A stretch of DNA of 64,000 nt from positions 201,256 to 265,255 of the forward strand of contig JAGYJJ010000004.1 of the NCBI GenBank assembly GCA_018402235.1, in the 5' to 3' direction. Both the position numbers and the translations under genes were made by a program. Numbering within the stretch: the stretch's first letter is position 1; every line of letters begins with the position of its first letter. Below are positions 1,218 to 61,646 of the stretch, piece after piece. The notes beneath the pieces are model-generated. The model worked only from the letters and a program-made list of their open reading frames with translations. It was not told the origin of the DNA and made no database searches. The DNA is from Candidatus Nanopelagicales bacterium. GTDB lineage: Bacteria; Actinomycetota; Actinomycetes; S36-B12.

Positions 1218-1282
1218 GCGAACCTCCCCGCCCGAACCAGCGAACCTCCCCGCCCGAACCAGCGAACCTCCCCGCCCGGACA
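1218..1282 (+). repeat. Extragenic 22-bp tandem repeat, about 3 units (array a of the GCGAACCTCCCCGC family)
   Basis: gcgaacctccccgcccgaacca x2, then gcgaacctccccgcccggaca. Lies in the divergent intergenic region between sufR and the ABC ATPase gene. Confidence 0.9.
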
Positions 1283-2997: not shown

Positions 2998-3975
2998 GTG
3001 ACAGCGACCACCCAGGCCCCTTCCTCATTTGGCGGACACCTGCCCGCACGTGATCCAGGTGCGTCACCTCGCTGGGTCCGAGGCGTCTATATAGCCAACC
3101 TCGTTGTGCAATCAGGGATCATCCTGACCGGCGCAATCGTGCGGATCACTGGGAGTGGCTTGGGGTGCCCTACCTGGCCCGAATGCGTCGAAGGCTCCCT
3201 CGTGCCCACCTCAGCCCAAATGGAGTCGTGGCACAAGTACGTCGAATTCGGAAATCGGCTTTTGACCTTTGTGCTGGCTATCGCCGCTATTGCCGCCGTC
3301 GTTGCCGCCTTGGTCGACCGTAGGCGGCGTCGCCGCGTTGGGCTACCGCCGCGGCGGATACTCACGGTTCTTGCATTCATTCCCCTCATCGGGACCGCCG
3401 TTCAGGCCGTACTCGGCGGCATCACCGTTCTGACCGGGCTGAACCCCTTCACGGTCTCTGCCCACTTCCTCGTCTCGATCGCTCTCGTCGCGGTCTGCGT
3501 TGCCCTCGTGGTTCGTTCAGGTGAGTCGGGTGATCGTCCACTTACCTACCTGGTTCCCCGGCCACTGCGCTACCTCACCTGGGCGCTAGTTCTGGCAACC
3601 CTCGCGGTGGTGGTCTTGGGTGTGATCACAACCGGAAGTGGTCCACATTCGGGCGACCTCAACGTGAGCGTTCGATTCAACCTTGACTTGCGAACAATCG
3701 CATGGCTGCATGCCGACAGCGTCCTGCTTTTCATGGGTCTAACAATCGGTCTACTCGTTGCCGCACGCGTTGCTCATGCACCATCGGCACTCACGCGTCG
3801 AACGTTGGTGTTGCTCGCTATCGCTTTGGTACAGGGAGTTATCGGCTACACGCAGTACTTCACGGGGTTACCCGAGCTGCTTGTCACGATTCACGTATTT
3901 GGGGCAATCGCCGTGTGGGTCGCCGTGTTGTTCCTCCCGCCCACATTGCGAACACGTGGCCTGGAAACGTTATGA
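2998..3975 (+). CDS. ctaA: Heme A synthase (COX15/CtaA family)
   Basis: ORF 2842..3975. The upstream part overlaps the permease, so the in-frame GTG at 2998 is the likely start. Motif ITGSGLGCPTWPEC plus many TM segments. Synteny with ctaB. Confidence 0.8.
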   Translation: MTATTQAPSSFGGHLPARDPGASPRWVRGVYIANLVVQSGIILTGAIVRITGSGLGCPTWPECVEGSLVPTSAQMESWHKYVEFGNRLLTFVLAIAAIAAVVAALVDRRRRRRVGLPPRRILTVLAFIPLIGTAVQAVLGGITVLTGLNPFTVSAHFLVSIALVAVCVALVVRSGESGDRPLTYLVPRPLRYLTWALVLATLAVVVLGVITTGSGPHSGDLNVSVRFNLDLRTIAWLHADSVLLFMGLTIGLLVAARVAHAPSALTRRTLVLLAIALVQGVIGYTQYFTGLPELLVTIHVFGAIAVWVAVLFLPPTLRTRGLETL

Positions 3976-5073: not shown

Positions 5074-7162
5074 ATGTCCAAAGCCACGCGATTTCCGTCT
5101 CGAACTGCCGATGTAGGTGCGCCAACCTTTACTTGGACCGACGACGACGCTCGAGCGGTCACCTACCTTCGTGCGCTCGCCATGGATGCGGTCCAGGCGG
5201 TGGGAAACGGTCATCCCGGTACGGCCATGTCCCTCGCCCCGGTCGCCTACCTGCTCTTCCGAGATTTCGTCCGCCACGACCCACGCGACACCCGCTGGCT
5301 GGGCCGGGACCGATTCGTCATGAGTGCGGGGCACTCCAGCATGACTTTGTATAGCCAGCTGCTCCTGTCGGGGAACCTGGAGATGGACGATCTTCGGACT
5401 TTCCGCACGTGGGGCTCACGAACTCCGGGACACCCGGAATACGGACACACCGAGGGGGTGGAGACAACAACCGGACCTCTAGGTCAAGGCTTAGCGGTGG
5501 CGGTGGGAATGGCAATGGCGTCGCGCTACGACCGGGGCATGTTGGATCCCGACCGACCCCTGAGCATCGAAAGCCCGTTCGATCATCGCGTCTGGGTCAT
5601 CGCCTCTGATGGCGATCTCGAGGAGGGCATTTCCGCCGAAGCCTCGTCGTTGGCAGGCCGGCAGCAACTCGGCAACCTGTGTGTGATCTGGGACGACAAT
5701 CGCATTTCGATCGAAGGCGATACCGCCCTGGCCTTCACCGAGGATGTCGCGGCTCGATACCGCGCTTATGGCTGGAATGTGAGCGAAGTAGACATGCTTC
5801 CCTCGGGCAACGTAGACATTGAAGCGCTCGCGAGGGCTCTGCAGTCAGCCCAGGGCACCACCGACGCACCGACCTTCATCCGCTTGCGCACCACCATCGC
5901 CTGGCCAGCACCCACGGCCCAAGGCACCGCTAAATCCCACGGCGCCGCCTTGGGTGTGGACGAAGTCGCGGCAACCAAGCGGGAACTCGGCATCGACCCA
6001 GACGAACACTTCGCCTTCGATCCAGAACTACTGACAACGATCCGCACCGGGCGGCAGCGCACGGGCGCGCAGGCTAGGGCTAACTGGGATGACGCCTTTT
6101 CCTCATGGCAGACGGATAACCCCGAGGGGGCGGATCTCCTTAAGCGCCTAATCACGGGCCAACCTCCAGCAGAACTGACACAGCGTTCTCCCCCGCTACG
6201 AGCCGGGGACATCCGTGGCCACTCGCAAAGCGTCCGGCGAGACCATCAACGCCATCGCGGCAGTCATGCCCGAGTTGTGGGGTGGTTCGGCCGACCTGGC
6301 AGAGTCGAACAACACCAGCATTGCGGGCGCCAAGAGTTTCCTTCCCGAAGACACAGCAACCTCTTCGCCGTTCGGTCGCATTATTCACTTCGGTATTCGC
6401 GAACACGCCATGGGCGCAATTTTGAACGGCATCGCGCTCGATGGCCTGACACGCCCCTTCGGTGGCACGTTCTTAGTATTCAGCGACTACATGCGCGGCG
6501 CCGTTCGCCTTGCGGCACTCATGGACATCCCCAGCACCTTCGTGTGGACCCACGATTCCATCGGCTTAGGTGAAGACGGACCGACGCACCAGCCGATCGA
6601 ACACCTGTGGTCCCTCCGAGCGATTCCCGGTCTGGCCGTGTGCCGTCCCGCCGACGCGCGAGAGACCGTCGCGGCGTGGACAGCCATCGTGCAGCAACGG
6701 GGTCCGGTGGGGCTGATCCTCAGCAGGCAAAACCTGCCGGTCCTGGATGTCGATCACCAACGCGTTATGGACGGCGTGAAACGTGGCGGCTACCTGGTCC
6801 GATCCACGGACCAGCCGCAGGCGGTGATTATCGCCACCGGTTCTGAGGTGTCCTTGGCGCTTTCGGCGGCCGATCACCTCGCAAGCGCTGGCATATCTGT
6901 GAATGTCGTGAGCATGCCCTGCCTGGAATGGTTCACAGCTCAAGATCAGGCCTACCAAGATGCGGTCCTTGATCCAGCTATCTCGGCGCGCGTGGCTGTC
7001 GAGGCTGGATCAACTCTCGGCTGGCACCGATTCGTAGGCGATCGCGGCGAAGTCCTGGGTCTGGATCACTTCGGAGCTAGTGCAGATGGCCCACGCTTGT
7101 TCGCCGAATTCAACTTGACCACCGAAGCCGTCGCCAACGCGGTGCGGCGGGTTATGGCATGA
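5074..7162 (+). pseudogene. tkt: Transketolase, interrupted by a +1 frameshift near 6179-6194 as sequenced
   Basis: ORF 5074..6573 is transketolase-like up to ...LITGQPPAELT (GHPGTAMSLAP, SDGDLEEG), then nonsense. ORF 6215..7162 in the +1 frame resumes with LPRYEPGTSVATRKASGE...THDSIGLGEDGPTHQPIEHL. Together they make one full-length Tkt. Confidence 0.9.
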
Positions 7163-32647: not shown

Positions 32648-33513
32648 TGAACTACACCGAACCGGCAGACCTCCCCAACCCGGGAGATCCCAATGACCCG
32701 CACGAGTTCGAAACTGAACTTGACGTCAACGCCGATCAACTGGCAACTGGACACCCGGCGTCACCTGAACAAGTCCACTTGTCTCAGGCTCTGGGCGCGT
32801 TGGTTCGCGCCGATCAACTCTTCGCCGGATACTTTCCCGGCGTAAACATCCTCAATGGCACAGATTTGTACGCCAAGGACGGAGAGCTCGTTGGCATCAT
32901 CGGCCCAAATGGAGCTGGTAAGTCGACGCTACTGAAGGCGATCTTCGGACTCGTTCACATCAATGAGGGGGCCGTCTTACTACGCGATGAGGACATCACC
33001 AACCTTCGAGCCGACCAGCTGGTCAAGCGTGGGGTGGGATTCGTCCCCCAGACGAACAACGTATTTCCCTCTCTCACGATCGAAGAGAACATGGAAATGG
33101 GTGCCTTCCAAGACCCCAAAAGTTTCAGCGGGCGCTTCGACAAGGTCGTGGATTTATTCCCCACCCTGGGAGAACGCCGCAAGCAGCGGGCTGGATCACT
33201 GTCCGGTGGTGAACGCCAGATGGTGGCCATGGGTCGTGCATTGATGATGGAACCCAGCGTGTTGCTGTTGGACGAGCCGAGTGCGGGCCTATCCCCCGCG
33301 CTTCAGGACGAGGTATTCGTCCGAGTGCGTGAGATCAACCAGACCGGCGTAACGGTGATCATCGTCGAGCAGAACGCCCGTCGGTGCCTGCAAATTGTCG
33401 ATCGCGGATACGTTCTGGACCAGGGCAAGAACGCTTACACAGGATCGGGCAAGGAACTGGCCAACGATCCCAAGGTCGTCGAGCTCTACCTGGGAACCCT
33501 CGCCAAGGCCTAG
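32647..33513 (+). CDS. livF: Branched-chain amino acid ABC transporter ATP-binding protein (LivF family), with N-terminal extension
   Basis: ORF 32647..33513, 288 aa. The ATG overlaps the livG stop by 1 nt (TGATG). Motifs GPNGAGKSTLLKAIFG and LSGGERQMVAMGRAL. Confidence 0.9.
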   Translation: MNYTEPADLPNPGDPNDPHEFETELDVNADQLATGHPASPEQVHLSQALGALVRADQLFAGYFPGVNILNGTDLYAKDGELVGIIGPNGAGKSTLLKAIFGLVHINEGAVLLRDEDITNLRADQLVKRGVGFVPQTNNVFPSLTIEENMEMGAFQDPKSFSGRFDKVVDLFPTLGERRKQRAGSLSGGERQMVAMGRALMMEPSVLLLDEPSAGLSPALQDEVFVRVREINQTGVTVIIVEQNARRCLQIVDRGYVLDQGKNAYTGSGKELANDPKVVELYLGTLAKA

Positions 33514-33699
33514 CCGGCGAACCTCCCCGCGTGGACCGGCGAACCTCCCGCGTGGACCGGCGACCTCCCGCGTGGACCGGCGAGCCTCCCCGCGTGGACC
33601 GGCGAACCTCCCGCGTGACCGGCGAGCCTCCCGCGTGGACCGGCGAGCCTCCCGCGTGGACCGGCGAGCTCCCCGCGTGGACCGGCGAACCTCCCGGCG
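33514..33699 (+). repeat. Extragenic tandem repeat, about 8.8 units of 20-22 bp (array b; unit CCGGCGAACCTCCCCGCGTGGA)
   Basis: Units read at 33514, 33536, 33557, 33577, 33599, 33619, 33640 and 33661, with a partial unit at 33682. The array fills the whole gap between the livF stop (33513) and the DUF559 stop (33703). Confidence 0.95.
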
Positions 33700-33702
33700 T
33701 AA

Positions 33703-34503
33703 TCACCACCTTGCCGAGTTTCTGAGCATTCGCTCATTTCTAACCTGGCGCAACCTACTGACGATGGCGTGCGGATGGCGGAGATCCTCTTTTCGCACTA
33801 CGAGGACTTCCCATCCCTCATTGCGCAGGAGCTTGCGCCGCTCTTCGTCATGCTCAACCGTCTCGGCGTGCCAGTCGCCGTCGTACTCGGCACCGATCTT
33901 CAGCAGCGGGTAGGCCAGATCCAGGCGACAAACGATTTCGCCTCCGATAACGACACTCCAGTTGATCCGCGGCTCAGGAAGACCGCACGAGACCATAAAC
34001 CATCTCAAACGTGATTCTTGAGGGGACTCTGATCCGCAACGTAGCCAGGGCGCAACTGACCGTGCCCGACGTACTCCGCGTCGACCCCTAGACCACGCCA
34101 GGACCGACTCCACTTCTTCAATCGTGATTGCGCCTTCCTGCAGGCAGTAGTCGCCCATTGCCAACAAATGATCCTCGCTCACCAACGATGCGCAATCGAC
34201 CCAAGTTCTCGCCGCTGACGTTACACAAACACCACGTAGATTCAGACGGTGTTCCGGTGGCACATAGATCTCATGACCGTCTGTTCCATGTTGACGTGAG
34301 GCGTTTCCGCCACCGAACCTCGTAAGACTCACTACGCCTGATAGGACCGCCGCGGCTCGTGTGGCCGGTACCGGCATTCCCCACAGCGCAGCTGCGCTGA
34401 AGCCGACCACGATGCCTGGTGTTCGAGCCTTAGCTAACGCCAATCTGCAGTCTGCCTCAACGCTTGCCAGTTCATCAGGCGACCAGCCTGAACATCGCTC
34501 CAT
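33703..34503 (-). CDS. DUF559 (Vsr/PD-(D/E)XK-like endonuclease fold) domain protein
   Basis: ORF 33703..34521(-), which has a TTG start. The first ATG is at 34503 (MERCSGWSPDEL). C-terminal DUF559 signature: CRLDLAYPLLKIGAEYDGDWHAETVEHDEERRKLLRNEGWEVLVVRKEDL. Confidence 0.75.
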   Translation of the reverse strand: MERCSGWSPDELASVEADCRLALAKARTPGIVVGFSAAALWGMPVPATRAAAVLSGVVSLTRFGGGNASRQHGTDGHEIYVPPEHRLNLRGVCVTSAARTWVDCASLVSEDHLLAMGDYCLQEGAITIEEVESVLAWSRGRRGVRRARSVAPWLRCGSESPQESRLRWFMVSCGLPEPRINWSVVIGGEIVCRLDLAYPLLKIGAEYDGDWHAETVEHDEERRKLLRNEGWEVLVVRKEDLRHPHAIVSRLRQVRNERMLRNSARW

Positions 34504-34626
34504 GAACCCACTGTCAGACAATCACAGTGAGCCGGACTAGCCCCAACCGCGATCCTGTGGAAGTCGAAACCGCAGGCTGTTGACAAAGTGGCGGTTACTG
34601 AGGTTAACCCGACGCCCAAGGGGTCA

Positions 34627-34706
34627 GTTCGCCGGTTCCGGCGGGGAGGTTCGCCGGTTCCGGCGGGGAGGTTCGCCGGTTCCGGCGGGGAGGTTCGCGG
34701 GGAGGG
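34627..34706 (-). repeat. Extragenic tandem repeat, about 3.6 units of 22 bp (array c; same family, opposite orientation to array b)
   Basis: gttcgccggttccggcggggag x3 plus gttcgcggggaggg. The reverse complement rotates to CCGGCGAACCTCCCCGCCGGAA, 19/22 identical to the array b unit and 20/22 to array a. Confidence 0.95.
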
Positions 34707-34710
34707 AATG

Positions 34711-34750
34711 AGTCGGGGCCCTGCTCCGCTAAGGAAGCAGGGCCCCGACT
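34711..34750 (-). terminator. Perfect 15-bp GC-rich hairpin downstream of the binding-protein gene (probable intrinsic terminator, no clear U-tract)
   Basis: agtcggggccctgct (34711-34725) / agcagggccccgact (34736-34750) with a 10-nt loop, starting 21 nt after the stop at 34771. Confidence 0.55.
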
Positions 34751-34770
34751 GTCATGCGGGGTGCGGCGCC

Positions 34771-36105
34771 TTACGGCAGCGGCACGTCCGCAGTGACCTT
34801 GCCGATCTCTTCGAACTCGGTGTTCGAGGTGTACTCGTTCACTGCGATGGTGCCCTGAGCCAGATCGCCGTACTCATTGAAATCGACTGGGCCAGTGACG
34901 CCCTCGAAGTCGATCGCGGTACCGGCATCCAGCAGAGCCTTGCAGTCGGCCCAGGTGGAGCACTTCTCGCCACCGTTACCTGCAACCTCAGGCAGGAACG
35001 TGGCGATCGCAGTGCCGTCACCGCAACCGGCAGCCTCAGCGGCCAGCGCAATGAGCATCATCGAGTCGTAGGACTGTGCGCCGTAGGCGAAGTCCGTGAG
35101 GTCAGGATCGACCTCAAGCAGGCTGTTGTTGAACTCGGTGAGGTCAGCCTCACCCGAGGGCACGGTCGCCTTAACGCCGGTCATGGTGCCAGCCGGGAAA
35201 TCCGCGTACGCGGTGGTCGAGATGTTGCCGTCCACCAGGAAGATCTGGATGTCCTGCGGCCCAGCGCCCTGCTTGATCATCTCCTGCAGGAGCTTGACGG
35301 TCTCCTCGAAGCCGATCACAGTTACAGCCTGCGGACCGCTGGCGACGATCTCGCTCACCTCAGCAGCAAAGTCAGCCGCTGCGGGGTCGTAGAGCAGATC
35401 AGCGGTGATGGTGCCACCGGCAGCGCTGAAGTCCTTGACCACAGCATCCTTCAGGCCTTCGCCGTAAGGATCTTGACGAGCGATGACGGCCATCGACTCA
35501 ACGCCGCTATCGACTGCGTCGGCCGCGATGACTGCGCCCTGGAGCACGTCAGACGGCGAAACACGGAAGTAGAGGCCGTTGTCCGGGTAGGTGGTCAGCG
35601 CCGGCGCCGTGTTGGCCGGTGAGAACTGAACCACGCCGTTGGACGTGATCTTGTCGATAACGGTTAGCGACACGCCAGAGGACGCAGCGCCAATGATCGC
35701 CTGCACGCCCTGAGACAGGTGCGAGTCGACGGTCTGGCTTGCGATGTCCGTTGTGGTGTCGCCTGAATCACCCTCGATGTAGGTGACAGGGCTGCCGAGC
35801 ACGCCGCCTCCGGCGTCGATCTCGAGCAGTGCCTTGTCGACGCCGGCAAATTCCGGCGGCCCGAGGAAGGCGAGGTCACCCGTGGCCGGGAGCAGTGAGC
35901 CCACGATCAGGGTGTCGTTTTGGCAGGTTGCGTCGTCAGCGGCGGTGTCCTCTGCGGTATCTTCCGCAGCGGTCTCCTCAGCCACTGTCTCCTCAGCGGT
36001 CGTCTCGGCCGACGTTGCATCATCGTCTCCGCCGCCACAGGCAGCGAGAGCGAGGGAAGCAGCGCCGAGCACAGCGACGGCCTTGAGAGCCATAGTGCGC
36101 TTCAT
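34771..36105 (-). CDS. ABC transporter substrate-binding lipoprotein, branched-chain amino acid (LivJ/K-like, type 1 PBP) family
   Basis: ORF 34771..36150(-). ATG at 36105 preceded by AAGGAG. Signal plus lipobox MKRTMALKAVAVLGAASLALAAC, then a Thr/Glu/Asp-rich linker and a PBP-like body (IVGSLLPATGDLAFLGPPEFAG). Confidence 0.8.
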   Translation of the reverse strand: MKRTMALKAVAVLGAASLALAACGGGDDDATSAETTAEETVAEETAAEDTAEDTAADDATCQNDTLIVGSLLPATGDLAFLGPPEFAGVDKALLEIDAGGGVLGSPVTYIEGDSGDTTTDIASQTVDSHLSQGVQAIIGAASSGVSLTVIDKITSNGVVQFSPANTAPALTTYPDNGLYFRVSPSDVLQGAVIAADAVDSGVESMAVIARQDPYGEGLKDAVVKDFSAAGGTITADLLYDPAAADFAAEVSEIVASGPQAVTVIGFEETVKLLQEMIKQGAGPQDIQIFLVDGNISTTAYADFPAGTMTGVKATVPSGEADLTEFNNSLLEVDPDLTDFAYGAQSYDSMMLIALAAEAAGCGDGTAIATFLPEVAGNGGEKCSTWADCKALLDAGTAIDFEGVTGPVDFNEYGDLAQGTIAVNEYTSNTEFEEIGKVTADVPLP

Positions 36106-36246
36106 GCAGTTCTCCTTGGACATACGAAACGACGGCGAATGCCGTCGCATTGACCGTTACTCTAAGCGCACACCGGTTACCGGCAGGTAACCAGAAGGGG
36201 TCCCTAGACCGTTTCGTGATCGGAATGTGACCTGCTCGAACCTTAA
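36106..36246 (-). promoter_or_regulatory. Structured 141-nt leader/spacer between the ANTAR regulator gene and the binding-protein gene
   Basis: On the minus-strand RNA there are two hairpins. One has an 8-bp stem with hexaloop CUGCCG (36173-36194). The other is CGACGGC-AUUC-GCCGUCG followed by UUUCGU (36130-36147), about 12 nt before the AAGGAG RBS. Confidence 0.3.
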
Positions 36247-36843
36247 CTAGGGGGTGACCTGCCCAGCCAGGAGCGCGGTGGCCGCCTCGGCGAGGGTGAC
36301 ACGCCTGTCCATTGCCGCCCGGCGCAGCCAAGCAAACGCCTCCGGCTCGCTCATCCCATGGCCGCCTTGGAGCAGATTCTTGGCCTGCTCCACAGCCTCG
36401 CGGGAGGCAGCTCGCTCGCCCAACGAGGAAACCTGCGCCTTCAGATCTTGGATCTGCTGCCACCGGGCCATCGCCAACGAGATGGCGGGGTCAAGGTCGG
36501 CCATCGTGAACGGCTTAACTACGTACCCCACGGCTCCGGCTTCCGCGGCCTTGGTCGAGATATCGCGCTGGCTGAAGGCCGTGACCATGACAACGGCGCA
36601 AAGGTCCTCCGCTGCAATCTCCGCAGCCGCGGATAGACCATCTCGTTCCGGCATCGCGATGTCGAGGAAGACCATGTCCGGGCTTTCCGATCGAACGAGG
36701 TCCACTGCCTGCTGACCGTTGAATGCCTCACCCACAACCTGATGCCCGAGTTCACGGACCATCTCGACCAGGTCCATTCGGATCACCGCTTCGTCTTCGG
36801 CAACGACGATGCGCAAAGACGCGCCCTCAAGAACTCCAGACAT
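36247..36843 (-). CDS. pdtaR: Response regulator with ANTAR RNA-binding output domain (PdtaR-like)
   Basis: ORF 36247..36843(-), 198 aa. REC domain (RIVVAEDEAVIRMDL...DMVFLDIAMPERDG...VVKPF) plus an ANTAR C-terminus (REAVEQAKNLLQGGHGMSEPEAFAWLRRAAMDRRVTLAEAA). Confidence 0.85.
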   Translation of the reverse strand: MSGVLEGASLRIVVAEDEAVIRMDLVEMVRELGHQVVGEAFNGQQAVDLVRSESPDMVFLDIAMPERDGLSAAAEIAAEDLCAVVMVTAFSQRDISTKAAEAGAVGYVVKPFTMADLDPAISLAMARWQQIQDLKAQVSSLGERAASREAVEQAKNLLQGGHGMSEPEAFAWLRRAAMDRRVTLAEAATALLAGQVTP

Positions 36844-37437: not shown

Positions 37438-37516
37438 TCGCACCTGCGTGCGACTCAACCAAACGGGTTCAGGCCGTATCCAGCGGGTAGAGGTTCGCCG
37501 CTAACCTTGTCTCCGC

Positions 37517-37590
37517 GCCCCGGTATCCCAACCGGTAGAGGAAGCGGTCTCAAACACCGTCCAGTGTGGGTTCGAATCCCACCCGGGGCA
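37517..37590 (+). tRNA. 74-nt tRNA with anticodon CAA (nominally Leu) on a class-I short-variable-loop body; CCA not encoded
   Basis: Cloverleaf read directly. Acceptor GCCCCGG/CCGGGGC (7 bp). D arm TCC-CAACCGGTAGA-GGA (has GG). Anticodon arm GCGGT-CTCAAAC-ACCGT (U33, CAA, A37). Variable loop CCAGT. T arm GTGGG-TTCGAAT-CCCAC. Discriminator A. Confidence 0.75.
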
Positions 37591-37684
37591 CGAGCGAGTG
37601 GAGCCGAGCTTGCTCGAGTTCCCGAGCGAGTGGCACGGGTTGAGCGAAGCGATCACCCGGGGCACGAGCGAGTGGAGCCGAGCT
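37580..37684 (+). repeat. 31-bp direct repeat (period 74 bp) duplicating the last 11 nt of the tRNA plus 20 nt of downstream sequence
   Basis: cacccggggcacgagcgagtggagccgagct occurs identically at 37580-37610 and 37654-37684. The core cgagcgagtgg appears a third time at 37623-37633. Confidence 0.9.
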
Positions 37685-58751: not shown

Positions 58752-59919
58752 CTACCGACGCTTACGCCGTGGTTGGCGCTTGGGTTGAACGCGATCGGAG
58801 CTCTGCGTGCGCGCAAATTCCCGTAGCTGCTCCGGGGATGCCGCACCCGATACAGCCGTGCTCGATACAGCCGCACCTGATACAGCAGGCCCGTCGTCCG
58901 GCGCGTTCCCTTCAGGACCATCACCAACAGCGGATCCCTTGCGCGCGGGGGATGCCTTTGCCGCTTGCTTGCGCCGGGCTTGCACTCGAGCCGCCAAGGC
59001 TTTCATTTCTGGCTGACGATCCTTCAGGAGTACGAGAACAGGAGTCGCGATGAACAAGGACGAGAAAGTGCCCACCGCCATACCAATGGCCAAGGCCACC
59101 GCTAGATCGAGCAGGGTCCCCGCGCCCAAGAGTCCGGCGCCCACGATGATGATCGCCAAAACCGGCAACAACGATGTGATCGAGGTATTTAATCGAGCGG
59201 ACTACCGTCTGGTTCACCGCAAGGTTCGCAGCTTCGCTGTAAGTCATGATCGACTGCCCAGCGATGCCTCGGGTGTTCTCCTTGACCTTGTCGTAGACCA
59301 CCACAGTGTCGTAGAGCGAGTAGGCGAGGATCGTGAGCACACCGATGGCAGTGGCGGGGGTGACCTGCAACCCGAACGCTGCATAGATCCCGATAGTGAT
59401 AACCAAGTCGTGGATCAACGCCACTAATGCGCCCACTGCCATGCGCCACTCGAAGTAGATCGACAAGAAGATCGTCACGAGAACCAAGAAAATCGCCAGG
59501 CCCTGTAGAGCGGCCGTGGAGATCTGGGCCCCCCACGTAGGTCCCACCACCTGCACGGTGATGTCAGTCCCCAAGACCCCGCAGGTGTCGCCCAGAACAT
59601 TCGACAGCGCTATCGACTCCGGACTCGTCAACGGCTCCGTTTGCACCCGCATAGTTCCCGAGCCAGCCACCGTCACGATTGTTTGACCGCCAGTTTCGAT
59701 CTCCGCCACCTCTCGCGCTTCTGCCACTGAGCAGGTTGCATTCGGGATCGCGAAATCGGCACCGCCTTTGAACTCGATTCCTAAGTTGAGGCCACGGATC
59801 AGTAGGGCAGCGATTGCGACCACCAGCAAGACCGCCGAAAACGCGAACCACCTCTTCCACCGGCTCACAAAATCGTAGGAAACTTCACCGCGATAGAGGC
59901 GTTGACCGAAGTTACTCAT
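58752..59919 (-). pseudogene. secF: Protein translocase subunit SecF, interrupted by a +1 frameshift at about 59186-59195 as sequenced
   Basis: ORF 58921..59919(-) is correct up to ...AVNQTVVRSI. ORF 58752..59171(-) continues with NTSITSLLPVLAIIIVGAGLLG...FSSLFIATP. The sequence reads ATT AAA TAC where ATT AAT ACC is expected. Confidence 0.9.
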
Positions 59920-61646
59920 GAGCGAACCTCCGCATTCTCAGCGTCGGTGTTGATGTCTTCGAGGGACGCGTCTTTGTCCTCTTTTCGCTCACGGTAGTCA
60001 TCACGGCGCTTCCGAGCTGAGCGACCAGCAAGCGAGTCAATTGCGCTGTGGCCACCAATACGGTCCGGATCCAAACCGGTAAGTTTGGAACCACTTTGCA
60101 TGAGTTTGGTTCGACCGAGCAAAACCACAATCGGATGCGTGAACCAGAACGCCATAACAAGGTCAATAGCCGTGGTCAAGCCCAAGATGAATGCGAAGCC
60201 ACGAACGCTACCCACCGATAGGAAGTACAACACCACAGCCGCGAGCAGCGTTACGAAGTCAGCCGCAAGTAATGTTCGCCGTGCCCGAATCCAACCGCTG
60301 TCGCAGGCCTGGCGAAGTGTTCGTCCATCGCGGAGCTCATCGCGCATGCGTTCGAAGTAGACAATGAAAGAGTCGGCCGTGATGCCCACGGCCACGATCG
60401 CACCCGCCACTCCAGCCAGAGTCAAAGTCAAACCGATCGTCTTAGAGAAGATCACCACGGCTAGGTACAAGATCAGACCCGCCACGGCCAGCGACAACAC
60501 AGCCACCAGGCCGAGGAGTCGGTAGTAGAGAACCAAGTACACGCTGACAAGACTCAACCCGATGAGCGCCGCGATGATGCCGGCCCTTAGTTGGTCTCCC
60601 CCAACGGTTGCCGATACGGAGGTGACGTCCACTACCTCCAAGGTGACCGGCAGTGCGCCGTACTTCAAGACATTCGCCAGATCGCGAGCCTCTTGAGCGT
60701 TGAAGTCACCCTCGATCTGAGCCTGACCTCCGAGGATCGGTTCGTTGAATCGAGGAGCGGACACAACCACGCCATCCAAGACGATTGCAAAAGCATTACA
60801 CGGAGTTGCACCTGAGCCACACTCTGGCAGCGCACTCAACTCGGTGGAGGCATCGGCCAGTGCGCCTGCACCCTCGGAGTCGAACTCCAAACTAACGACC
60901 CACCCGATGCCCTGCTGGGTCAACTGAGCGTTGGCATCGGTCACATTCACACCTTGGATGAAGGCCGGTTCCATCACATACTTCTGGGCCCCACTTTGGT
61001 CGCAGGCGCCGAGCCACTGCTCGGGATTATCGGGCGTGCCGCCGGCCAAGTTCACCGGATCCAGGCAATTCAGCGCATCGACCTCGGCCTGGAACTCGGG
61101 CGTGTAGTCCGGCGCTTGCACGATCTCTGCGCTCCGGGCACCTCCTTCATCGGACGCGTCTTGGTCAGCTGCGTCTTGGCCAGCTGCGTCTTGGTCAGCC
61201 GACTCACCCGCTGCATCGGTGCCGGCTTCGTCCGCGGCAGCATCGGCCGGGAACGGACTCAGCACGTTCCACACTGGACGGAAGTTGAGTAGTGCGGTCC
61301 GTTGAACGAGCTCCACGACCCGCTCTTGCCCAACTCCCGGTACCGACACGACGATTGCCGTTGAGTCGCCAGAACCCTGCGTTGTCACTTCAGCTTCGGC
61401 AACACCTAGCCCGTCCACTCGAGCGCGGATGATCTCTACGGACTGCGCGAGTTGTTCCTCGGTGATCTCGGTGCCCTCCACCACAGGCTGGGGAACCATG
61501 ATCACCTGTGTGCCACCCTGCAGATCCAAGCCCAAACGCACAGACGAGTCTGTTCCCGGCCAAAAAGCCCACACTGCGCTGCCTATCAGCAGCACTGCCA
61601 GAGCGATCAAAGATCGCGCTGGTTTGGAAGTTGCGGGTGTTGCCAC
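59916..61646 (-). CDS. secD: Protein translocase subunit SecD
   Basis: ORF 59916..61646(-), 576 aa. Contains LGLDLQGG and a C-terminal TM bundle. ATGA-type overlap with secF. Confidence 0.9.
   Translation of the reverse strand: MATPATSKPARSLIALAVLLIGSAVWAFWPGTDSSVRLGLDLQGGTQVIMVPQPVVEGTEITEEQLAQSVEIIRARVDGLGVAEAEVTTQGSGDSTAIVVSVPGVGQERVVELVQRTALLNFRPVWNVLSPFPADAAADEAGTDAAGESADQDAAGQDAADQDASDEGGARSAEIVQAPDYTPEFQAEVDALNCLDPVNLAGGTPDNPEQWLGACDQSGAQKYVMEPAFIQGVNVTDANAQLTQQGIGWVVSLEFDSEGAGALADASTELSALPECGSGATPCNAFAIVLDGVVVSAPRFNEPILGGQAQIEGDFNAQEARDLANVLKYGALPVTLEVVDVTSVSATVGGDQLRAGIIAALIGLSLVSVYLVLYYRLLGLVAVLSLAVAGLILYLAVVIFSKTIGLTLTLAGVAGAIVAVGITADSFIVYFERMRDELRDGRTLRQACDSGWIRARRTLLAADFVTLLAAVVLYFLSVGSVRGFAFILGLTTAIDLVMAFWFTHPIVVLLGRTKLMQSGSKLTGLDPDRIGGHSAIDSLAGRSARKRRDDYRERKEDKDASLEDINTDAENAEVRS

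Follow-up and report, generated by a model that had tools for sequence, protein, structure and literature searches.

A DUF559 endonuclease gene bracketed by inverted arrays of a cognate short repeat in Candidatus Nanopelagicales

Results

A nuclease gene between two inverted repeat arrays

In the genome of a Candidatus Nanopelagicales bacterium (Actinomycetota; assembly GCA_018402235.1), the plus-strand livHMGF genes and, facing them on the minus strand, the gene of a Peripla_BP_6 binding protein converge on a gene for a DUF559/Vsr-like PD-(D/E)xK endonuclease. We analysed this locus within a window of 64,000 nucleotides (contig JAGYJJ010000004.1, positions 201,256 to 265,255 of the forward strand) and found that the endonuclease gene is bracketed by two inverted arrays of a 21-22-bp repeat, a distal array on its 3' side and a proximal array on its 5' side (Table 1). 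Below, we refer to the gene together with its repeats as the cassette.

Tandem Repeats Finder placed the distal array (array 1) at 33514-33696, with a period of 21, 8.7 copies, 90% matches and the consensus CCGGCGAACCTCCCGCGTGGA; the 21-bp variants are several units that are short of one C. The array opens on the base right after the livF stop codon (33511-33513) and closes 3 nt short of the DUF559 stop codon (33703-33705), so that it occupies the space between the two genes. The proximal array (array 2, 34627-34698) has a period of 22, 3.3 copies and 100% matches, its unit reads GCGAACCTCCCCGCCGGAACCG on the strand of the gene, and it lies 106 nt from a TTG start codon at 34521 and 124 nt from an ATG at 34503. 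The units of the two arrays are equal at 19/22 positions after rotation, on opposite strands. A third, solo array of the same family was found at 1218-1278 (period 22, 2.8 copies, 100% matches).

When up to two mismatches were allowed, the 14-nt core GCGAACCTCCCCGC gave 10 matches compared with 1.48 expected, none of 100 shuffles reaching 10, and four pairs of cores 6-10 nt apart were observed where 0.00 were expected. The arrays are real and not a product of chance. A first-pass annotation of this DNA had described the positions, copy numbers and inverted orientation of the arrays, the 19/22 identity after rotation, the recurrence of the repeat family near the start of the window, the liv context and the DUF559 identity of the enclosed gene, and we could confirm each of these elements, the last by a Pfam match above the cut-off.

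Neither array has significant structure of its own (fold z-scores of +1.3 and +0.9 in comparison to shuffled sequences), and the lowest value for array 2, z = -4, arises solely from a 5-bp mini-palindrome. Rfam returned no family match for hairpins or arrays at seven loci, and promoter and terminator scans around the DUF559 gene detected nothing. The GC-rich hairpin that follows the binding-protein gene is kept in junctions both with and without DUF559.

Table 1. Coordinates of the repeats, the endonuclease gene and associated features in the window
Feature	Position	Strand	Remarks
Solo array of the same repeat family	1218..1282	+	2.8 perfect 22-bp units, GCGAACCTCCCCGCCCGAACCA
Distal array, 3' of the DUF559 gene	33514..33699	+	about 8.7 units of 21/22 bp, CCGGCGAACCTCCC(C)GCGTGGA
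DUF559/Vsr-like PD-(D/E)xK endonuclease gene, AbiEi-like N-terminal region	33703..34521	-	272 aa from TTG 34521
TCCACAGG box	34554..34561	-	on the strand of the gene, between proximal array and start codon; operator-like
Proximal array, 5' of the DUF559 gene	34627..34698	+	22-bp units perfect; core on the strand opposite to array 1
Outer bracket end GTTCGC-GGGGAGGG	34693..34706	+	core and G-run, terminal-inverted-repeat-like in most species
GC-rich hairpin	34710..34751		directly 3' of the binding-protein stop codon; outer cassette boundary on that side
Single core-like copy GCGAACCTCT	37489..37498	-	beside tRNA-Leu(CAA), at the site of the L144 array; possibly chance (12/100 shuffles give one match)

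The encoded protein

The start codon is likely to be the ATG, which gives a protein of 266 aa. Its sole Pfam match is DUF559 (PF04480; score 22.7 bits, cut-off 20.6; residues 201-252), and NCBIfam returned no family match. Among 27 aligned homologues, 25 matched DUF559 and 22 matched MTES_1575. The nuclease motif, D195...E206-x-D208-G...H212...D219, is intact: D195, E206, D208, G209 and D219 are invariant in the 27 homologues, and H212 is nearly so. A search with the AlphaFold2 model (mean predicted confidence, pLDDT, 88.9) in Foldseek had the homing endonuclease I-Bth0305I (3r3p) as the top match, with a target TM-score of 0.74, followed by Vsr (1cw0/1vsr), and a profile search matched 3hrl and 3r3p.

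The region before the nuclease domain gave a weak match to the PADLOC AbiEi models (E = 1.5e-4 and 6.9e-4, residues 69-142), the match being strong (1.2e-22) only for a longer homologue, P0070. The AbiEi_4 winged helix was matched neither in the window protein nor in any A1 member. The window protein begins approximately 35-45 residues later than the longer paralogues. These carry the AbiEi_4 domain, as do the paralogues at loci L074 and L114, whereas the window lineage lacks it. Judged from its sequence, the protein appears to join an AbiEi-like region to an intact nuclease domain of the Vsr/DUF559 kind. No AbiEii nucleotidyltransferase gene is adjacent, the neighbours being livF and the binding-protein gene, and apart from a LysE gene in three species the bracket encloses no other gene. 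There was no match to ToxN/AbiQ-type families in PADLOC or Pfam, and with DUF559 as the only Pfam match and a PD-(D/E)xK fold the protein is not an HUH/Y1 (IS200/IS605-type) enzyme.

The public NCBI call for this locus covers only the last 97 residues (P0123; window 33703-33996). Since the open reading frame of 266-272 aa is intact and relatives conserve all of it, this call is probably a truncated one.

Co-occurrence of gene and arrays at the junction

The first-pass annotation had proposed to compare the livF/binding-protein junction in close relatives. The relatives are genomes assembled from metagenomes, with Candidatus Nanopelagicales or 'uncultured actinobacterium' as their label; the species of the window itself is present in saline-lake samples. 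We found orthologues of the DUF559 gene between these two genes at L001, L006-L015, L057, L062, L063, L065, L072 and L144, and in every close orthologue locus there are arrays on both sides of the gene, with a period of 21-22 and mutually inverted. Gene and arrays proved to be jointly present or jointly absent: tandem arrays occur in 16 of the 17 DUF559-bearing junctions compared with 2 of 54 without DUF559 (Fisher's exact test, p = 8e-13), and the two exceptional DUF559-less junctions hold just 1.9 copies each. Arrays of 21-22 bp are otherwise nearly absent from approximately 1 Mb of related loci.

In distant relatives (LivF at most 83% identical) the junction is a gap of 70-280 bp with neither gene nor arrays. 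Outgroups also have no gene, and neither does a clade that is nested among the carriers (LivF 88-90% identical), in which a non-coding stretch of about 400 bp remains. In this clade, a profile search of the stretch found no protein trace, and at one locus (L071) about two array units are left beside the terminator hairpin of the binding-protein gene. The gene-less gap (L064, L066-L071, L082, L088) is itself conserved. Its 360-430 bp of non-coding DNA contain several TCCACA/TGTGGA boxes and a tandem repeat of 14 bp (GGCCGATCGCTTAT), and might encode a small RNA or be left over from a regulatory region.

Contigs of about 1 kb from short reads start and stop within the arrays (L002-L005, L007, L009-L012, L145), and many genome-bin contigs terminate beside the DUF559 gene. 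As inverted arrays break assemblies, metagenome bins probably contain the cassette too seldom or in pieces.

A short core is conserved while spacers and copy number vary

The proteins that flank the cassette are 84-97% identical to those of the window, and the DUF559 proteins 42-52%. The synonymous divergence of livF between species is 0.7-1.5, a distance at which unselected non-coding DNA should be scrambled. Despite this saturation, the association is conserved: the arrays, their 21-22-bp period, the core and the TCCACAGG box persist in every species, and the end motifs in most. The ratio of nonsynonymous to synonymous divergence (dN/dS) of the DUF559 gene is 0.09-0.26, so the gene is under purifying selection, though it is less constrained than livF. 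A hypervariable or exchanged locus, as the contrast between flanks (about 90% identical) and DUF559 (about 50%) might imply, was mostly rejected, as the livF synonymous divergence and a DUF559 dN/dS of 0.1-0.26 account for the gap.

The array core is about 10-11 nt long, starts with (G)CGAA(C), continues with 4-6 lineage-specific bases and is the same in both arms of a cassette. It varies by species, for example GCGAACCTCCCC, CGAACTGCCAAC, GCGAACYTGC, CGAA(A/C)GGGCAC and CGAACTGGCGC, and the core type tracks the DUF559 protein tree. In about half of the species, the two arms share just this core and the remainder of the unit differs, which favours a short site over long base-pairing; the unit length of 21-22 bp sets successive cores about two helical turns apart. 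The pattern would therefore fit a short site repeated approximately every two helical turns rather than an RNA or DNA duplex. LexA boxes were considered and rejected: CGAAC is a LexA half-site, but the arrays do not contain CGAAC-N4-GTTCG palindromes.

Copy number varies in both arms, in the distal array with 8.7 copies in the window, 3.9 (perfect) in L001 and at least 2.9 in L002, and in the proximal array with 3.3 in the window, 5.4 in L002 and 2.0 in L001. Between the window and L001, whose proteins are 97% identical, the proximal spacer changed from CGGAACCG (3.3 copies) to the 8-nt CCCACACC (2.0 copies) and the core stayed unchanged. With the solo array included, strain-dependent copy number, as in a variable-number tandem repeat (VNTR), was seen at all three arrays.

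Cassette ends and upstream box

Most orthologous loci are bounded by CCC(Y)CTCCCC-GCGAAC ... GTTCGC-GGGGAGGG, and ends that resemble the terminal inverted repeats of a transposon are found in most species, not counting the window, whose bracket is one-sided: its livF-side end has no mirror C-run.

The TCCACAGG box lies 5' of the gene in all orthologous junction loci. It is also found in 23 of 45 distant paralogue loci, compared with 6.4% of background windows, always at the same position and in the same orientation, and at one of them (L023) it is palindromic (CCTGTGGAC-N11-GTCCACAGG). Copies of the box persist in the clade that lost the gene. The box resembles a DnaA box (TTGTCCACA in L006 and L009, TTATCCACA in L015); we rejected this identity because the invariant part is TCCACAGG and not TTGTCCACA.

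Distant paralogues carry matched repeats of their own

A profile of the protein family matched 13,206 clusters (50% identity) at E <= 1e-10, and genomes often carry several paralogues; OZ257127.1 and OZ257128.1 are complete long-read genomes with more than one cassette. Cultivable carriers include Arthrobacter sp. Leaf337 (L050, with a hairpin-type cassette), Y81 and SPG23, Citricoccus and Micrococcus terreus. We analysed 45 paralogue loci at other sites in many Actinomycetes, 41 of which were used to count flank matches. The paralogue gene usually lies between two copies of a cassette-specific, near-perfect palindrome of about 65 nt, one 5' of the promoter region and the other just past the stop codon, whose arms open with CG(TT)GAGTGG followed by cassette-specific bases. 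Stems at L027 reach 25-26 bp, with fold z-scores of -11 and -12 for the two palindromes. Hairpin-type paralogues also have C-run and G-run flanks analogous to the ends of the array type, and L023 has 19-bp arrays on both sides with units that bridge the array core and the hairpin core. An identity of the hairpins with integron attC sites was rejected, as their ends, GTTGAGT...ACTCAAC, run in the inverse order to attC cores.

In 31 of the 41 paralogue loci the two flanks had an identical stretch of 14 nt or more in common, as against 5 of 308 shifted controls. Where a genome carries two or three cassettes, the median match is 17.5 nt between the two flanks of the same cassette, whereas matches between cassettes stay at the background of 9 nt. 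Flank matching is therefore specific to the cassette. The question put by the first-pass annotation, whether other DUF559 paralogues are bracketed by matched repeats, is answered in the affirmative by these counts, and its suggestion of a link between the DUF559 gene and the repeat family, which might form a small cassette, withstood the two comparisons that could be run in full, those of the junction and of the paralogues.

Solo arrays match the resident cassette

The solo array of the window sits in the intergenic (promoter) region between a divergent pair of genes, SufR-like and ABC-ATPase, far from any DUF559 gene, and has 1.9 copies in two other assemblies of the species. The related species L144 has a 62-bp gap with no array at this site. 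It carries a 6.3-unit array at about 1527-1650, beside tRNA-Leu, made of the core of its own cassette. Solo arrays are rare, with one in about 74 kb of the source species and, for L144, one in 17 kb; their site differs between species, and they always match the resident cassette. The genome-wide count of arrays that had been proposed in the first pass could be made for these 74 kb, where two of the three arrays flank the DUF559 gene; in the DNA covered, arrays are concentrated at the gene, and this count did not give the refuting result either. A scan of all GTDB representative genomes and of the JGI metagenome collection, in which the source genome is evidently not searchable, for two adjacent cores of the window type gave 0 hits, although the pattern does recover the local loci.

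The tRNA-Leu(CAA) gene lies between nusB and the gene for an ANTAR regulator (window 37489-37591; L144 1434-1650). Beside the same tRNA gene, L006 has a 45-bp tandem repeat with 2.3 copies (3015-3118), and L001 has similar sequence at the corresponding site (6900-6950).

History of the junction

Paralogue loci form synteny groups, and orthologous flanks accompany all cassettes with an identity of 80% or more, which led us to reject recent transposition. No transposase or recombinase gene is present at the locus. On plasmids, there were only five weak matches to the family, all on large replicons, and on phages there were none. The DUF559 and livF trees are weakly or partly incongruent, with a poorly resolved livF tree, and several DUF559 copies are pseudogenes. 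The absence of the gene from the nested clade amounts to presence and absence at one site among close relatives, as expected of a homing gene. The cassette may have been acquired once in an ancestor and then inherited vertically, with quick divergence and with loss in at least one clade.

At L074, the junction holds a member of a different subfamily in the opposite orientation; its hairpins match, its outer flank is C-rich, and it has a TCCACAGA box. The nearest relatives of this gene are distant paralogues with about 34% identity. At L114, the junction is home to a third AbiEi_4-DUF559 gene, which has arrays of 15 bp and 30 bp upstream of it. Three different family members have colonised the same junction in different lineages. 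Inside the bracket, between DUF559 and the distal array, L006 (6913-7521), L009 and L014 carry a gene for a LysE-family exporter. These carriers belong to different cassette clades, and the gene is either an ancestral cargo that was repeatedly lost or one that was repeatedly gained.

The junction is also an insertion hot spot in L087, L101, L114, L123, L135 and L138, with accessory genes that differ by lineage (PhzF-like, a second binding-protein gene, a BCCT transporter, an alpha/beta hydrolase and a methyltransferase).

Other features of the window

An ANTAR response-regulator gene (36247-36843) adjoins the Peripla_BP_6 gene (34771-36150) and livHMGF and is kept in all relatives examined, an arrangement that recalls the control of amide or urea uptake of the AmiC/AmiR type. 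Tandem Repeats Finder also reported 15-bp repeats at 58840-58886 (3.1 copies) and 61156-61199 (2.9 copies). A perfect 18-bp tandem duplication, TGGATGCGTGCTCTTTAC, is present in two copies at 422-457, at the 3' end of the SufR-like gene, and is kept in three assemblies of the species (also L146 10674-10709 and L147 4298-4333).

Discussion

Relation to known systems

We found no paper that ties DUF559 to flanking repeats. A DUF559 domain-containing protein is enriched among predicted targets of programmed inversion, where it appears in a table and is not discussed (PMC9881135).

The first-pass annotation had likened the layout to that of repetitive extragenic palindromic (REP) elements and the REP-associated tyrosine transposases (RAYTs). 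This comparison holds in several respects. A single nuclease-type gene lies between inverted copies of a short repeat family, as it does in all orthologous loci; the repeat co-varies with the gene between genomes and has cognate copies away from it; and the unit is chromosomal and largely inherited vertically. It fails in others. The RAYT (TnpA-REP) is an HUH/Y1 enzyme related to IS200/IS605, whereas the cassette protein combines a PD-(D/E)xK Vsr/DUF559 domain with an AbiEi-like region, and a REP is an imperfect palindrome of about 20-40 nt, of which a genome has tens to hundreds, whereas the cassette has unstructured, non-palindromic tandem units of 21-22 bp with few solo copies and sparse dispersal in the DNA covered, palindromes (of about 65 nt) being confined to the paralogues elsewhere. 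By an analogy that extends to layout and cognate co-variation only, the cassette would seem to work most like REP/RAYT, yet it lacks the features that define that system, i.e. the HUH enzyme, palindromic units and, in the roughly 74 kb covered, high dispersal.

Other systems share single traits with the cassette. The closest solved catalytic fold is that of I-Bth0305I and the Vsr-like (EDxHD) homing endonucleases, with a D...ExDG..H-type motif common to both, and like a free-standing homing gene the cassette is a lone nuclease gene between conserved genes that is missing from some relatives. It differs from homing endonuclease genes in having no intron or intein, in its cognate flanking repeats and in its synteny over long divergence. 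With AbiEi, the antitoxin and autorepressor of the type IV AbiE system, it may share the region before the nuclease domain (a weak match in the window protein); further resemblances are the AbiEi_4 domain of the longer paralogues and an operator-like TCCACAGG box 5' of the gene, palindromic in L023, which may correspond to the inverted repeats of the AbiEi promoter. In contrast to AbiEi, the protein has no AbiEii partner, is fused to a nuclease, has repeats on both sides of its gene and, in the window lineage, has no winged helix.

Tn7, with its 22-bp TnsB sites, and phage Mu also have direct repeats of about 22 bp at both ends of a unit, one set inverted to the other. In Tn7, moreover, TnsA is a PD-(D/E)xK nuclease too, and insertion takes place just 3' of a conserved gene. 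The cassette, however, is one small gene with no DDE transposase, target-site duplication or recent transposition. In type III toxin-antitoxin systems, a tandem-repeat array lies directly 5' of the nuclease gene. The proximal array has the same placement, and there is a link to abortive-infection families (ToxIN, AbiQ/antiQ), but its units are 21-22 nt instead of about 36 nt (35-40), there is a second, inverted array downstream, and the protein is not ToxN/AbiQ-like. Iterons and ParR-parC offer helically phased direct repeats of about 20 bp that bind the protein of a neighbouring gene with mutual specificity, as the cassette protein may do here; the cassette differs in being chromosomal, in having no replication or partition genes and in the pairing of inverted arrays around a nuclease gene. 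Nothing described so far accounts for this feature, whose reality is confirmed and which varies the theme of a nuclease gene with cognate repeats.

Interpretation

We believe, with a probability of about 0.5, that the locus is an endonuclease cassette bracketed by repeats, and that the cassette protein acts on the sites that flank its own gene. The encoded protein would bind the repeated cores at both ends of its gene, probably cooperatively, and by analogy with AbiEi the TCCACAGG box would probably be an autoregulatory operator. The protein would then nick, cut or loop the DNA at the cores. Such action would hold gene and repeats together as one unit, would now and then give rise to cognate solo arrays at other places and, in the long run, would carry the unit to intergenic sites that tolerate it, while the length of the arrays would change fast through slippage. 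We infer this chain of binding, cleavage, regulation and mobility from the comparative data: a protein that acts on its own sites would explain the matched arms, the specificity of each cassette, the cognate solo arrays and the slow colonisation of intergenic regions.

Several points weigh against a protein that acts on its own sites. That of the window lineage has no obvious DNA-reading part, since it is without the AbiEi_4 winged-helix segment. The co-variation of protein and core could stem simply from linkage, and the matching of the arms could arise by gene conversion between inverted repeats. Unrelated genes also insert at the junction, which weakens the argument from three insertions. 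We saw no near-identical copies at different sites and no target-site duplication at the cassette ends, and there is no recent mobility, with a family that is rare on plasmids and absent from phages. The count of solo arrays rests on about 74 kb of the source genome, and dispersal is sparse there.

The cassette might also be, or have been until recently, a true mobile element or a free-standing homing-endonuclease gene, with arrays and hairpins as its ends, each with several binding sites as in Tn7 or Mu, or as remnants of its recognition site. In such a case the nuclease would cut cassette-less alleles or the ends of the element itself, into which the host's recombination machinery would then copy the cassette. 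The ends do resemble terminal inverted repeats with inverted subterminal sets of about 22-bp repeats, the fold is closest to that of I-Bth0305I, and the gene is present in some close relatives and missing in others; three different family members at one junction, a cargo gene inside the bracket, several paralogous cassettes per genome together with pseudogenes, and the partial incongruence of the DUF559 and livF trees also agree with it. We nevertheless consider it unlikely. Orthologous cassettes are fixed in position across species with a synonymous divergence >1, neither displaced near-identical copies nor target-site duplications were found, and there is no transposase or recombinase. Weaker constraint alone can explain the divergence of the gene, the livF tree is poorly resolved, and the junction accepts unrelated genes too.

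The repeats might also act at the RNA level, as insulators or terminators around a possibly toxic nuclease gene, as stabilisers of its mRNA or as a repeat-RNA or antisense regulator; a transcribed upstream array could pair with the downstream array in the 3' untranslated region or act like a type III antitoxin RNA. The very stable, terminator-like hairpins of the hairpin-type paralogues, right after the stop codons of the upstream gene and of DUF559, would suit such a role, as would the complementarity of the window arrays on one strand at 19/22 positions and the placement of the array 5' of a nuclease gene, known in general from type III toxin-antitoxin systems. However, the window arrays are unstructured (z = +1.3 and +0.9, and -4 for array 2 from its 5-bp mini-palindrome only), the scan found no terminator-like sites, and the binding-protein gene already has a hairpin outside the array. 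In about half of the species the arms share around 10 of 21-22 nt, which would make a poor duplex, and terminators need neither a mutual match nor cassette specificity within a genome. Solo arrays in promoter regions fit badly with such a role, and the protein is not ToxN-like, all of which makes it improbable in our view. Finally, the arrays could be functionless slippage VNTRs, by-products of gene conversion or sites for an unrelated host factor. Copy number is indeed strain-variable at all three arrays, units within an array are usually identical, as under rapid turnover, and the TCCACA boxes are still there in the clade that lacks the gene, where at least this motif may be read by some other factor. 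This explanation is strongly disfavoured by the co-occurrence of gene and arrays (p = 8e-13), and position, orientation, period and core kept across saturated synonymous divergence, family-wide and cassette-specific matching of the flanks, and the near absence of 21-22-bp arrays from about 1 Mb of related loci also speak against it, leaving it a very small probability.

Implications

If the cassette protein does act on its repeats, it would represent a second, mechanistically independent lifestyle of the 'nuclease plus cognate repeat' kind besides REP/RAYT. On a larger scale, and only as a speculation that we think has less than an even chance and is indeed rather doubtful, the AbiEi-like-DUF559 genes of Actinomycetota and their cognate repeats (about 13,000 clusters) might form an unrecognised class of selfish or mobile elements. 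Such elements would be driven by a PD-(D/E)xK enzyme of the Vsr type and not by DDE, HUH, serine or tyrosine enzymes, with a nuclease that would know the repeats at its own ends, give rise to solo arrays and spread into gaps where genes converge.

On a practical matter, the arrays are strain-variable and break short-read assemblies, which makes them useful as strain markers. DUF559 or 'endonuclease domain-containing' proteins are among the commonest uncharacterised genes in Actinomycetota, and the matched repeats together with the operator-like box give this family its first concrete and testable handle, a defined candidate DNA ligand. Paralogues with different repeats in one genome provide natural specificity pairs, and if the protein acts on its repeats as we propose, the family could supply programmable site-specific DNA binders or nickases.

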